From the IMG/VR virus record IMGVR_UViG_3300042433_000009, positions 1 through 30,999 of that record: a DNA stretch of 30,999 bases. One strand, written 5' to 3'. The DNA comes from a virus (lineage: Duplodnaviria > Caudoviricetes). Made by a program: the position numbers and the translations under genes. The notes beneath the pieces are model-generated. The model was not told the DNA's origin. It saw only the letters and a list, made by a program, of their open reading frames with translations, and did no database searches. Below are positions 9,971-20,900 of this stretch, one piece after another (within the stretch, counting starts at the first letter, position 1; every line of letters starts with the position of its first letter).

Positions 9971-9979
9971 AATTTATAT

Positions 9980-10067
9980 AAAAAAAGAGAGTCCCCCTAA
10001 GCGAACAGCCAAGTTGATAGGGGGATTTATACTCTCTAAGATTAAAGTCTTTGTCATTTGGCTGTTC
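9980..10067 (-). promoter_or_regulatory. Structured 5' leader of primase gene: terminator with competing upstream complement
   Basis: AGAGAGT/TCCCCCTA...TAGGGGGACTCTCT+U7 hairpin; loop TTGGCTGTTC is complementary to upstream GAACAGCCAA. Confidence 0.65.
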
Positions 10068-10076
10068 TAATTTTTA

Positions 10077-10108
10077 CAAATGTAATAATAATTATTAATA
10101 CTTTACAA
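10077..10108 (-). promoter_or_regulatory. Bacteroidota promoter TTGTA-N19-TACATTTG for the primase operon
   Basis: TAnnTTTG match immediately upstream of the structured leader. Confidence 0.6.
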
Positions 10109-10110
10109 AG

Positions 10111-10359
10111 TGTGCAATCTTTTTTTATCAACATACAACTTTGCACAAACTTTGCACACCCAAAAGTTAGCAGTACCAAGGCTTTGTGCAAAGTTGGTCT
10201 TTTTTTTTACTTTTTTTTTTCATCCTGGTCTTATAGTATATATAGGGTAGGGGCTTTTTCTCAAAACTTTGCACAAATCAATCTAAAATACTGATAATCA
10301 ATGTTATTTTATGTGCAATCTTTTGTGCAAAGTTGTAAGGACCATTTTAACATTGCACA
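10111..10359. repeat. Putative replication origin: 8 TTGCACA iterons (5 as AACTTTGCACA) in both orientations around T-tracts
   Basis: Core copies at 10111, 10141, 10152, 10185, 10269, 10312, 10324, 10353; non-coding, upstream of primase-helicase. Confidence 0.7.
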
Positions 10360-10380
10360 AAAAAAGCTCCGAAGAGCTTT
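10359..10380 (-). terminator. Intrinsic terminator with UUCG loop
   Basis: AAAGCTC-TTCG-GAGCTTT followed by further Ts on the minus strand, at the end of the early ORF run. Confidence 0.85.
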
Positions 10381-11322: not shown

Positions 11323-11515
11323 TATCATTGTTTTTTATTGGCACATCTAAGCCATACATTAAATCAAACATCTTGAAATCTCTGACAGCATTCCTCTTAC
11401 TACCCTCATAATTTTGAAAGTACCACTCTCTAAATTGTAGGTATTTTTGGTGAGTGTAATCACCATTAGCTATTTCATCCTGGACCTTAATAGCTAGCTG
11501 TGTGAACTCAGTCAT
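11309..11515 (-). CDS. Hypothetical early protein (68 aa)
   Basis: ORF track; overlaps its neighbours. Confidence 0.65.
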   Translation of the reverse strand: MTEFTQLAIKVQDEIANGDYTHQKYLQFREWYFQNYEGSKRNAVRDFKMFDLMYGLDVPIKNNDNEDI

Positions 11516-11633
11516 TGGATTTATTGTTTATGATTTGTAAATACCTGAGGTAAAGAGGCAGATTAAATCCACCTCTTATCTCTTCTGCTGTTCTTCTGCT
11601 AGTCCAAAACTTTATAATTGCGTTGAATGTCAT
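11508..11633 (-). CDS. Small hypothetical protein (41 aa, MTFNAIIKFW...)
   Basis: Read manually; ATGA coupling. Confidence 0.5.
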   Translation of the reverse strand: MTFNAIIKFWTSRRTAEEIRGGFNLPLYLRYLQIINNKSND

Positions 11634-11821
11634 AGCTTAGATTTAAGTAGGTTAAGATTTGCATCACTTAAAGGAAACTGAGACATATCTCCATCATCAG
11701 TCTCTGTAGCATCATAAGTAAATGGCTCAATAGTGCCTGCTATGTATACATCACTATCATAGTCAGTAGTCCAATTAGAAATGTATTGATTGCCATTTTT
11801 GTATAGGTCTATAAAATTCAT
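11630..11821 (-). CDS. Hypothetical early protein (start MNFIDLY)
   Basis: ORF track, re-started at the ATGA overlap. Confidence 0.6.
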   Translation of the reverse strand: MNFIDLYKNGNQYISNWTTDYDSDVYIAGTIEPFTYDATETDDGDMSQFPLSDANLNLLKSKL

Positions 11822-11949
11822 AATATAAGTTCTAAAAAAGTGAATAAAAATAAGATTGATAGTATTACAGTTGTAACAATAAGCATAGCTATAGCACATG
11901 CTATCTGCTCAGCTCCTACAGGAGTAAAGTATTTAATTAGTTTTTTCAT
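11818..11949 (-). CDS. Small single-pass membrane protein (43 aa, MKKLIKYFTP...)
   Basis: Read manually; hydrophobic C-terminal helix. Confidence 0.55.
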   Translation of the reverse strand: MKKLIKYFTPVGAEQIACAIAMLIVTTVILSILFLFTFLELIL

Positions 11950-12106
11950 TGATTTTGTCTATTAGGTTAGTAATTGCATACCATTGAGCGTAAGCCCTTA
12001 TAGTAGCTTCATCTTTTCTACCAAAAGCATCTGCACTTTCTTTAGCCTGGTCATACAGTGATTCCCACTCAGCTAGAATGATTGTCATAATTTGTTCTTT
12101 GTCCAT
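11933..12106 (-). CDS. First early gene, hypothetical (start MDKEQIM)
   Basis: First ATG after the 12140-12169 promoter, with an A-rich leader. Confidence 0.6.
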   Translation of the reverse strand: MDKEQIMTIILAEWESLYDQAKESADAFGRKDEATIRAYAQWYAITNLIDKINEKTN

Positions 12107-12139
12107 GTGTAAAAGTTTTAATTGTTGATAACTATACGC

Positions 12140-12169
12140 CAAAGATAGTATAAAGTTTTATAACTGCAA
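12140..12169 (-). promoter_or_regulatory. Major early promoter TTGCA-N17-TATCTTTG
   Basis: Canonical Bacteroidota -33/-7 boxes heading the early ORF cluster. Confidence 0.8.
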
Positions 12170-12181
12170 TAAAAAAGTGTA

Positions 12182-12538
12182 ATTTATATTCATTCTAAAT
12201 AAGGATAGGTCGCAATTTGCGACTGCAACCGCAGAATATTATAATAAATCAGGGAAACTTACCACTTGGCGGAAATACCGACAGGTTAAAACCTTAAAAC
12301 CTTTACTATTATTAAGGTTATACCCTTAAAAAGTCCAATTTATTAATTAAAAAACGGGACAAATCTAAAGTGTTACTTTGGAATTACATTATAATTATAT
12401 AGTTAATCGGAATAAAACCGATAATGTAAAGCATATCTTACAAAAGTATTGTTATTTGTAAACTATATTTAGTGTTATCTATCTAACATATTAGCTATTA
12501 ATACCTATCTGTCACAATTCTAGCTAATATATGTGACA
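12182..12538. promoter_or_regulatory. Array of about 14 distinct, abutting or overlapping operator-like inverted repeats
   Basis: For example GTCGCAA-T-TTGCGAC, AGGTT-AA-AACCT, AACCTT-N10-AAGGTT, ATCGG-N7-CCGAT, TGTAA-N8-TTACA, TTACAAA-N10-TTTGTAA, TGTCACA-N15-TGTGACA. Confidence 0.75.
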
Positions 12539-12579
12539 AAAAAAAAGCAGCTGCGTGCTGGGGAGCTTACAACTGCTTT
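12538..12579 (-). terminator. Intrinsic terminator ending the late/lysis transcript
   Basis: AAAGCAGTTG...CAGCTGCTTT hairpin running into a T9 tract on the minus strand. Confidence 0.8.
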
Positions 12580-12604
12580 CTTTAACATGAAAACAAGTGC
12601 TAAG

Positions 12605-13369
12605 TTAATGCTTATATTTGAATTTCAAAAATTCTAAGTAACTTTTATTATTTATTTTAAAATGTTTTTTACAATCATTACATAACATCCAATGATGGAT
12701 AGTACCTCCTGCAGTCACTACCTGTTTATTATATCTTACATTATAGTTTGTACATTCAGGACAGCAGAACTTCTCATCTCCCTCCATTACAGCATAGTGA
12801 GTAGATGGAGTAGTGTAGGAATTAAGTTTATTGAATACAGCTTCTAGGACAGTGACATCCATTTTGCAATACTCTACCATCTTATCCATTGCTTTCTGAT
12901 CTTTCTTAAATACTATATCTTTCCACAGGTCTAATCCTCCTGTATCCATCTTTTGACCTACTCCTAAATACTTAGCTATATAGTCTAATTTATTAGAATT
13001 AAAATTAAAGTACTTTCTAGCCCATTTAAGAGTGTCAATAGTCTTAGGTGAGGGCATAACATCAATACCATGTAATAAAGCTCTTGTACGCAACCATTTG
13101 AGGTCAAATCTATCCCCATTATGAGCCACAATTTCATCAGCCTGAGCCATAACTTTAAGGAATGCTTTTATCATTGCCTTATCTGATTGCTTTTTATCCC
13201 AAGTTAGGAACTGTACATCACCATCTGACTCCCATTTGTAGCAGATGCAGATGATTGCTCTCTCATGGATGATATCACCTGGATTGATAGTTAGATTATA
13301 TCCTGACCGCCAAAATATACCAACATTGAATGATGTCTCAATGTCAAAAAACAGTCTTTTTCTTACCAT
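12605..13369 (-). CDS. RNase H-like (DEDD; RNase_H_2/YprB-like) 3'-5' exonuclease with C-terminal Zn ribbon
   Basis: FFDIET, AHNGDRFD, YCKMDV; CPEC...CNDC. Confidence 0.85.
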   Translation of the reverse strand: MVRKRLFFDIETSFNVGIFWRSGYNLTINPGDIIHERAIICICYKWESDGDVQFLTWDKKQSDKAMIKAFLKVMAQADEIVAHNGDRFDLKWLRTRALLHGIDVMPSPKTIDTLKWARKYFNFNSNKLDYIAKYLGVGQKMDTGGLDLWKDIVFKKDQKAMDKMVEYCKMDVTVLEAVFNKLNSYTTPSTHYAVMEGDEKFCCPECTNYNVRYNKQVVTAGGTIHHWMLCNDCKKHFKINNKSYLEFLKFKYKH

Positions 13370-19629: not shown

Positions 19630-19660
19630 AACTATATTATATTTTTTTTATATTTGTTCA
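19630..19660 (-). promoter_or_regulatory. Putative late promoter TGAACA-N13-TATAATATAGTT-ATG
   Basis: Conserved motif; overlaps a divergent host-type -7 box. Confidence 0.75.
19649..19656 (+). promoter_or_regulatory. Bacteroidota -7 box TATATTTG for the plus-strand gene pair
   Basis: TAnnTTTG 16 nt before ATG 19673, with an A-rich leader. Confidence 0.6.
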
Positions 19661-19672
19661 AAAATTAAAACT

Positions 19673-20251
19673 ATGATAGAATTATTCGGCAAAGAAATCC
19701 CATCTAAGATGGATGAATTAACACTAGAGCAATTCCAAAAAATATCTGCTATCCATAACAGTGATGAGTATGATACTCTAGAAAAACATTGTAAAGTCTT
19801 TGAATACTTAGGTATAACTGAAGAGGAGATGGATATAGACTTTGAGCTGTTCTTAGAGAATGTTAAGTTGTTTAATAAAGATAACTATACTAAGAAAGAT
19901 CCTGTAGAAGAGATAGAGATAGATGGCTATACTTATAGAGCTGAGATGAAGCTCTCAGTAAAAGATTCTCGGATTGTTGAAAAGATAGTGAAGAAAGATA
20001 ATAAAGAATATATCTCTGAAATCATGGCTCTAATGTTCAAACGAACTGACCTATCCAATGCTGAGCATTATGATTCTGCACATCTAAAACACAAAGCTAA
20101 ACTATTTAGTAAGCTCAAAGCAGATATAGCTATCCCTTACCTTACCTTTGTAACCTACAAAATAACAAACCATGCAGAATCTCAAGTTACCAAAGCATTG
20201 GAATCAGATATCAGTGAGTCAGTTCCTGGAGCTGAGGAGTCTGAGCAGTGA
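19673..20251 (+). CDS. Hypothetical acidic protein, possible tail assembly chaperone (paralog 1)
   Basis: 192 aa; similar to the next ORF. Confidence 0.7.
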   Translation: MIELFGKEIPSKMDELTLEQFQKISAIHNSDEYDTLEKHCKVFEYLGITEEEMDIDFELFLENVKLFNKDNYTKKDPVEEIEIDGYTYRAEMKLSVKDSRIVEKIVKKDNKEYISEIMALMFKRTDLSNAEHYDSAHLKHKAKLFSKLKADIAIPYLTFVTYKITNHAESQVTKALESDISESVPGAEESEQ

Positions 20252-20900
20252 GGATGGAATGTTTAACTATCAGATTGATGTACTTTCTGCTTTAACAGAT
20301 AGCAATATCTCTGAATTTGAGGAGCTAGATATAGATGAGCTAAGTGAATTGACTAAGCAGATTAAATGGATACAGGCTGATCCATCTAGGAGGTATAAAA
20401 GTAAGCTAGATAAGTATGTACTTAAGCCATTCAGTAAGCTATCACTAGGTGAGTTCATAGACCTAGAGCATTACTTCTCTAATAACTACTTAGACCACTT
20501 CTGCCACATCTTAGCCTTGCTGTACAGAAGAACATCTAAGAACATCTATGGTGATGATATCATTGAGCCTTATGAGTATAGTCCTAGAGATAGATTAGAT
20601 TGGTACTTAGAGTATCCTATTACTGATGTTTATGGATTGATACCTGAGTATATTAAATTTAGGGAGAACTTTACTAATACCTATACTAATTTACTAGTAG
20701 ATGTAGTGACTGATGATGAGGTGCTAGAGGATGCTGATGAGATAAAAGAGCAGAAGAGAGAACAGCAAAAGCAGAAATTTGCTTGGGAGTCCACTATCAT
20801 GGCTCTATGCAATGATGACCTAAGCAAGTTTAATGATATCCTAGAGATGCCTGTAGTGTTAGTCTTTAATATCTTAGGAATGAAAAAAACTTTAGACTAG
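20172..20900 (+). CDS. Hypothetical acidic protein, possible tail assembly chaperone (paralog 2)
   Basis: 242 aa; LPKHWNQISVSQF, LSLGEFIDLE, ILALLYR. Confidence 0.7.
   Translation: MQNLKLPKHWNQISVSQFLELRSLSSEDGMFNYQIDVLSALTDSNISEFEELDIDELSELTKQIKWIQADPSRRYKSKLDKYVLKPFSKLSLGEFIDLEHYFSNNYLDHFCHILALLYRRTSKNIYGDDIIEPYEYSPRDRLDWYLEYPITDVYGLIPEYIKFRENFTNTYTNLLVDVVTDDEVLEDADEIKEQKREQQKQKFAWESTIMALCNDDLSKFNDILEMPVVLVFNILGMKKTLD

Follow-up and report, generated by a model that had tools for sequence, protein, structure and literature searches.

The window examined here, a stretch of 30,999 nucleotides, represents a circular phage genome of 29,182 bp that occurs in lake and freshwater sequencing runs. 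Its best terminase matches are to Flavobacterium phages, at 33% identity, and together with the type of its early promoter they point to a host among the Bacteroidota. The interval at 12182-12538, referred to here as the array, is bounded on one side by a late terminator-like hairpin that follows the exonuclease gene and on the other by the promoter of the first early gene. The exonuclease gene (12605-13369, minus strand; phrog_403) forms the upstream anchor of the array and served to fetch relatives. The hairpin and the T run behind it (12538-12582, minus strand) were recognized from the fold and are retained in relatives, and they are absent from the output of a consensus terminator scan. 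The first early gene (11933-12106, minus strand), for which family searches gave no family, differs by swap among relatives; across 11500-12110 the first early genes are exchanged in this way, with the promoter and the Fur box beside them constant. The promoter itself (12140-12169, minus strand) has a -33 TTG, 19 nt and a -7 TATCTTTG, letters matched to what we take to be the consensus of the Bacteroidota -7/-33 type, and the same element stands downstream of the array in all 54 distinct arrays described below.

In the run that may be its source, the array interval lies on a single contig at a depth of 122 with 0 differences. RNA runs cover only small shares of the stretch, and one of them covers parts of it as contigs. 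The first-pass annotation had called the array the largest non-coding block of the genome, and so it is: the only longer minus-strand gap (19630-20269) and the gap at 20459-20896 contain plus-strand ORFs. Two such ORFs, within 19673-20900, break an otherwise minus-strand structural region.

All 15 inverted repeats that had been reported for this block are present at their coordinates, and the counts of CG dinucleotides given with them (8 versus 5) are correct. The block had been held to be neither a CRISPR array nor a set of iterons, and this agrees with its direct repeat families, which are two-copy only, with no repeated unit at regular spacing. Two parses needed correction. The repeats TGTAA-N8-TTACA and TTACAAA-N10-TTTGTAA are not separate units, both falling within one predicted 58-bp operator at 12421-12478, and the pair formed by TGTTA-N6-TAACA and TATTA-N5-TAATA probably falls across a CTAA-N4-TTAG site (12483-12494). 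A comparison of palindrome density with shuffles, which the first-pass annotation had put forward as a check, gave an excess over chance that is modest and by itself no proof: against 1000 dinucleotide shuffles, the inverted repeats yielded p values of 0.02 to 0.76 across 16 arm/loop settings, and the GC-weighted palindrome count of 9, versus 3.3 in mononucleotide shuffles (p 0.004), was reached by 10 of 157 other windows of the phage genome. Density was thus rejected as proof of the units, and the case from the single sequence alone is weak. That the units are real follows instead from comparison, namely from their gain and loss as blocks in relatives and from their matches to host sites.

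The plus strand of the interval folds better than shuffles (z -2.8), and the phage encodes small HTH proteins, features that would suit a structured RNA, a replication origin or a packaging site served by phage proteins. Against this, no Rfam family came near its threshold (the best hit reached 20 bits versus a threshold of 36, and the best E value, 0.12, belonged to a hit of 16 bits versus 100), the interval is reduced to only 31 nt in one relative, and its units match host operators. A role as origin is also unlikely since a better candidate exists beside the primase gene, where the second non-coding gap (9971-10378) holds 8 copies of TTGCACA, on either strand, that occur nowhere else in the phage genome; this gap is likely the replication origin. 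We regard an RNA, origin or packaging function of the array as very remote.

The exonuclease query returned 312 relatives, of which 80 were retained; 10 of these with too little downstream DNA and 1 without the anchor were left out, so that 70 intervals could be cut out, the window included. They comprise 54 distinct arrays, with lengths from 31 to 431 nt, which differ from one another by whole blocks, and the six units other than the Fur box occur in 25 presence patterns. The expectation that units would be gained and lost one by one, with arms better conserved than spacers, was borne out among these phage variants. Reshuffling, also expected, was not seen within the clade, where the order of units is fixed, and a different order appears in the more distant contig L726. 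Contigs of other lake runs show similar skips, for example from 12230 to 12264 and from 12246 to 12399. One of the 54 arrays carries none of the six units, which are therefore dispensable. Relatives also hold further AbiE operators that are missing from the window (that of L024 corresponds to L477 and that of L041 to L445/L446). Separately, L011, L023, L050, L074 and others have extra units beside the Fur box that are absent from the window; among these are variants with a CAAWTTG core and a AGGGTAATTTTT-type block, the latter with non-coding look-alikes in L279 and L443.

Three of the units resemble operators of AbiE systems. In the available extracts of earlier work, AbiEi is described as binding inverted repeats in its promoter and repressing its own operon (PMC3985639, PMC7319586). 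The unit at 12510-12538 is the predicted operator of a subfamily termed here type A (DUF6088, about 200 aa), that at 12332-12361 of type B (AbiEi of 199-241 aa) and that at 12404-12424 of type C, a second AbiE subfamily with an AbiEi of 212 aa; each was assigned by a host pattern and a profile. The type A pattern found 8 sites in 6 of 101 genomes, versus 2 in the control, with five at 4 DUF6088 operons and three elsewhere. Four sites of type B were found in 101 genomes and 0 in the control; two precede DUF6088 and AbiEii genes, one a HipBA operon and one an unclassified gene pair. Type C occurs as tandem copies before an AbiEi/AbiEii pair, two of its four pattern hits lying elsewhere. Host sites that match units A, B and C sit directly upstream of abiEi-abiEii operons, and PADLOC labels the partners of these sites AbiEi and AbiEii (AbiEi for types B and C). 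The partners of the array's units as a whole further include HTH_3 plus HipA_C proteins and candidate defense proteins of PDC-S05/S23. The units are present in 11 (A), 30 (B) and 38 (C) of the 54 arrays. No AbiE system accompanies them: tblastn with three AbiEi proteins gave no hit in the phage genome, and only operators are found.

A search starting from the proteins confirmed this. From 60 AbiEii loci, 49 were parsed and 11 unparsable ones left out, and the array scored at least 20 against 7 of the 49 AbiE upstream regions and 1 of 48 downstream regions; 12 shuffled versions of it reached this score 0-1 times, and another gap of the phage once (p 0.002 and 0.04). The type A palindrome was found in 12 of the 49 upstream and 0 of the 48 downstream regions. 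The type B unit is the best match for AbiE loci L442, L483 and L485, and type C was matched by L447, L448 and L488, plus L481 and L486. Matches of L434 and L462 to 12412-12433 were dropped because they lie within coding sequence, and those of L464 and L469 to unit C resemble tRNA loop sequence; one tRNA-loop-like string stayed among the 9 training sites of profile C. A Bacteroidetes SOS box (GGA-N5-TCC or CTAA-N5-TTAG) was also considered and rejected for the window, where one dyad is missing from unit C and the spacer of the CTAA site is 4 nt long; by the extracts of PMC8565304, both dyads and the spacer should be intact. GGA-N5-TCC is intact in 7 of the 38 arrays with unit C, and SOS cross-binding may occur in some relatives.

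The likeness to characterized AbiE promoters (PMC3985639, PMC7319586, in part) thus lies in inverted repeats just upstream of abiEi-abiEii, which three phage units match in their Bacteroidota versions, whereas the phage repeats stand without genes and place several specificities side by side. Binding is documented in the same extracts for the Streptococcus and Mycobacterium proteins and is putative for the subfamilies matched by the phage.

A match in L481 led to a family of operons encoding an XRE protein of 108 aa and a HipA_C kinase. The proteins of this family carry HTH_3 and HipA_C, the latter confirmed for the two downstream genes tested. The 58 bp at 12421-12478, which retain a -7 element, are the predicted operator and promoter of such an operon: they agree at 38-45 of 58 positions with the 58 nt directly before the start codon in each of the 19 relatives whose protein identity is 75% or higher, versus 25-42 of 58 in the other 51. 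In hosts the palindrome lies at the promoter of an XRE plus HipA kinase operon, as a putative binding site of HipB or HipBA, and the operator diverges along with its protein; the unit is present in 23 of 54 arrays. A first protein-first test of 70 HipA loci against the window array had shown no excess (11 versus 3-13 in shuffles), and the TTACAAA-N10 pattern had given 3 hits in 81 Flavobacteriaceae genomes, none at a toxin-antitoxin locus; the source was found later in another genome set. As far as the extracts of PMC8262856, PMC7029023 and PMC4150777 go, HipB2HipA2 binds promoter operators, and dimerization of HipA there is thought to limit its activity. The phage shares with these complexes a palindromic operator of the kind abutting XRE plus HipA kinase operons, of which it keeps the whole 58-bp site, and differs from them in that its copy is an orphan, with a sequence and length unlike those of the E. 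coli operator. The adjacent CTAA-N4-TTAG site (12483-12494) may tentatively be assigned to a HipB subfamily of 89-95 aa, having been seen before hipB-like genes in L532, L548 and L553. The extended motif occurs 6 times in 154 kb of HipA loci and 0 times in 552 kb of other host loci, which is suggestive only; the motif without its extension turns up 7 times in the phage genome, and only 4 of the 54 arrays contain it.

Two further units have their counterparts within genes, both of them candidate defense genes. That at 12203-12229 (core 12209-12223) is an orphan copy of a palindrome found inside ORF6N genes, with an exact match over 15 nt. This 15-mer occurs in an estimated 9,400 stretches of the genome collection; of 120 genome hits sampled, 75 fall within ORF6N-homologous sequence, where the 15-mer is read in one or the other of two frames, and PF10543 (ORF6N) was found in 13 of 16 hand-picked ORFs. 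The flanks of the unit alone are not significant (0.11). The unit occurs in 39 of 54 arrays and can also be read as a terminator-like hairpin. The second, at 12263-12287 and in 25 of 54 arrays, is a 25-bp palindrome of RhuM type, the two halves of which fit different host RhuM variants; such a palindrome was found in all 18 parsed RhuM segments (from 31 loci). By sequence, both phage units belong with these intragenic palindromes, and we infer that ORF6N and RhuM proteins bind the palindromes in their own genes. The literature searched, with most subscription journals outside its scope, contained no description of them.

Palindromes of this kind extend beyond the two families. Flavobacteriales host loci (L323-L410) contain RhuM, Bro-N/DinD-like, YhcG (DUF1016_N), KilA-N and ORF6N genes with intragenic palindromes of 17-33 bp that lie within a hypervariable coding segment and change in both arms together, and these proteins may all be putative binders of their own genes. 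The YhcG, KilA-N and Bro-N palindromes were considered as sources, and none of them matched the window array; in 151 Flavobacteriales genomes, a pattern of Bro-N type taken from relatives gave 5 hits, versus 5 in the control, with no family link. The ORF6N 15-mer also occurs in frame within a conserved phage protein, presumably helicase-like, in the viral contigs L082, L101, L104, L107 and L129.

The assigned units cover 205 of the 357 nt of the array, and about 40% of it is without a host match. Repeats reported at 12252-12263, 12283-12329 and 12364-12382 fall outside the assigned set. The first of them belongs to a block (12230-12262) that is gained or lost as one unit in relatives and for which no host match was found. 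The second corresponds to a pair of AAGG-TATA-CCTT-like sites 32 nt apart (12288-12331), with half-site likeness to the operators of 69-aa HipBs only; their pattern was not enriched in 5 host genomes (5 versus 23 in the control). The third lies in a ATGTAATT-type block (12362-12403) that is direct or inverted in relatives and had no convincing host match in pattern searches of 5 genomes each.

The Fur box is of a different character. The site at 12182-12200, a predicted site of the host iron repressor, agrees at 16 of 19 positions with the Riemerella Fur consensus of PMC5609570 (available in part), a 19-bp consensus of Flavobacteriales; the same extracts mention the -7/-33 promoter type. It is the only site in the phage genome within 3 mismatches of that consensus, a Fur-like box is present in 71 of 71 downstream regions, and its distance from the -7 element is 53 nt in every one of the 54 arrays, which makes it the only unit at a fixed promoter distance. 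Five host genomes gave 29 strand-hits to Fur-like sites, versus 2 in the control, and the genes that follow them (12 scanned) include one for imelysin, three for cytochromes c and those for COX3 and NqrA. The phage site thus resembles the published Bacteroidota box in sequence and in its place upstream of a -33/-7 promoter (PMC5609570, in part); it differs in lying on a phage early promoter and in being putative. It is a separate element, fixed in position, and likely couples the early promoter to the iron status of the host. Fur-box-like 19-mers are also common in viral contigs at large, with an estimated 2,300 stretches (L649-L774), and 120 of 126 sampled were unrelated to this clade.

This arrangement bears on one of the two functions that the first-pass annotation had offered, that of a dashboard, in which host regulators bind the array and set the activity of the early promoter, so that the phage reads the defense and iron state of its host. 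The array does lie directly upstream of that promoter, and there is a precedent in the Spo0A sites that repress the early promoters of phi29, as reported in extracts of PMC2731898. However, each of the six other units occurs at 11 to 25 different distances from the promoter, with values between 82 and 487 nt over the 54 arrays; none of them extends over the core promoter, and the orphan operators of other phages, considered below, lie in unrelated contexts. Sensing by the array as a whole is unlikely in our judgment: a dashboard would fit only the Fur box, and a sponge, the other function offered, would fit the remaining units better.

The first-pass annotation had also proposed that the array gathers binding sites of host regulators, for example those of toxin-antitoxin systems and of metals, and the assignments above (operators of three AbiE subfamilies and of a HipBA-type operon, a Fur box, and the ORF6N and RhuM palindromes) bear this out. 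With each of six host-derived profiles, the best site of the 29-kb genome falls within the array, at 23.5 bits versus 2.8 outside for type A, 26.2 versus 12.8 for B, 24.1 versus 8.6 for C, 45.8 versus -27.1 for the HipB-type unit, 13.3 versus 11.8 for RhuM and 31.0 versus -8.9 for the sixth. The margins are wide for five; for RhuM (17 segments; shuffle p 0.003) the unit is first only narrowly. These results are partly circular: the phage units informed the patterns used to gather profiles A, B, C and F, and the choice of the HipB query followed a match. Conservation among phage variants is higher at positions informative in hosts (pooled rho 0.40; p per family 0.0001 to 0.10), a test that is likewise partly circular since its variants were selected by their profile scores. 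The phage copies are degenerate, and under each of the six profiles they fall below the median score of the host sites. Homologues of eight such host regulators were sought in the phage genome and none was found. The match of seven units to host sites, their gain and loss in blocks and the lack of the regulators in the phage are plain observations, and the assigned units are very probably host-type operators.

Operators of this kind might be captured promoter fragments, pieces of host operon promoters gained by recombination and then kept, whether as additional early promoters or simply as neutral relics. Free loss of units and degeneracy of their copies would be expected of relics, and both are seen; the -7 element faces the early genes in 12 of 19 variants of the HipB-type unit. 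In type A, however, the gene-facing host -7 element is retained in 0 of 8 variants, although the arms are kept; each unit is cut down to its palindrome, with neighbors set so close that they overlap; and the ORF6N and RhuM units derive from coding sequence and not from promoters. Promoter capture is further opposed by the recurrence of the same operators in dozens of unrelated viral clusters, and appears improbable.

This recurrence is considerable. More distant contigs carry arrays of the same kind, and two of these contigs (L697 and L726) gave no hit to the window in tblastx. In viral contigs, single operators far outnumber arrays. With its 22 specified bases, the type B pattern matches viral contigs exactly at 81 places; for type A the estimate is 390. 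Among the loci examined, 77 of 80 (type B) and 76 of 80 (type A) have no AbiE gene within 900 nt and no kinship to the clade, and these orphan loci (L791-L951) fall into 40 and 41 flank clusters, respectively. A second operator type lies nearby in few of them (7 and 2). The sites fall outside long ORFs in 69 of 80 cases for type B and 44 of 80 for type A, and in the examples viewed they adjoin tRNA-like or small genes. Orphan single operators in about 40 unrelated clusters per type fit a function that needs no fixed position.

Such independence of position would also fit a protein coat, in which bound host proteins mark or shield the phage DNA, or as a roadblock insulate the early region from late read-through, the identity of the binder mattering little. 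The place of the array, with the late terminator on one side and the early promoter on the other, would suit a roadblock, and the hairpin of the ORF6N unit would add to it. Sites for core proteins present in every host would, however, serve better than sites for accessory systems, and the latter are what is found here: AbiEii occurs in 35 of 131 and 74 of 201 genomes and RhuM in 18 of 121. We consider a coat or roadblock distinctly unlikely.

The array is best read as a modular collection of host-type operator palindromes, for the most part those of AbiE and HipBA toxin-antitoxin operons, together with the palindromes of ORF6N and RhuM genes. On balance we lean, with only slightly more than even confidence, toward the view that it acts as a DNA decoy against toxin-antitoxin defense. 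Host antitoxin repressors would bind the operator copies on the phage; as phage DNA replicates, these copies would come to outnumber the single chromosomal operator and titrate the repressor off it. Loss of the repressor would keep the operon transcribed, antitoxin first, such that synthesis of antitoxin is sustained, and the phage copies might also hold toxin-antitoxin complexes on DNA in an inhibited state. Each strain would retain those units that match the accessory defense genes of its hosts. A decoy is favored over promoter sensing because the regulators concerned are defense-linked and patchy in occurrence, and because their sites are not tied to one position and turn up again in unrelated phages. 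The direction of its effect is not obvious, since titration of a repressor would also raise transcription of the toxin. The degenerate copies, the negative first HipA test, the blocks without a host match, the array that lacks all six units and the -7 element kept in many HipB-type variants speak against a decoy. According to extracts of a recent preprint, AbiEi neutralizes its toxin by binding it, and AbiE gave E. coli no protection from 32 phages in the one study (bioRxiv 10.64898/2026.01.19.700257); this lack of protection also argues against a decoy.

A bolder version, which we hold to be doubtful, is that the operators are themselves a DNA antitoxin. AbiE, HipBA, RhuM and ORF6N proteins would be harmless while docked and released once the host chromosome is degraded or silenced, and Bacteroidota phages of dozens of lineages would carry replacement docking sites instead of a protein. 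The cassette of the clade would then be updatable and read out the accessory defense genes of its hosts.

Lytic phages with sites for host regulators are already known from the Spo0A boxes of the Bacillus phages phi29 and Nf (extracts of PMC2731898). The common feature is a lytic phage with sites for a regulator whose gene belongs to the host and is absent from the phage, and the Fur box would fit that sensing model; the Spo0A boxes serve one global regulator at fixed promoter and origin positions, whereas at least six accessory, defense-linked specificities in a variable cassette appear here. No natural DNA operator decoy against toxin-antitoxin systems was found in the literature covered, outside which most subscription journals lay. 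To our knowledge, the known phage counter-defenses are proteins or RNAs. RNA anti-CRISPRs are non-coding phage nucleic-acid mimics of a host defense sequence, and the pseudo-ToxI repeats of phage phiTE are reportedly a non-coding mimic copied from a host defense locus. Both share with the array the use of a non-coding phage copy of a host defense locus as a mimic; they act as RNA and repeat one unit, in contrast to the array, which would act as double-stranded DNA with many units.

If the sites bind host proteins, a phage can counter or tune toxin-antitoxin defense with plain double-stranded DNA, a means that would escape gene-centered searches for anti-defense factors. The array would name the host systems that exert selection on the phage, and its blocks without a host match are leads to further defense regulators. 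It also makes testable the part of AbiE and HipBA in phage defense in the Bacteroidota and the role of RhuM and ORF6N proteins with palindromes in their own genes.

Some smaller observations concern other replicons. A search of the plasmid collection gave hits at chance level only, and the cultured Muminvirus filifjonk has no such array. The cultured jumbo Tenacibaculum phage pT24 (LC168164.1) has up to 3 places in its record that match the type B unit, and carries a perfect intergenic type B AbiE operator (L789:1515-1542).
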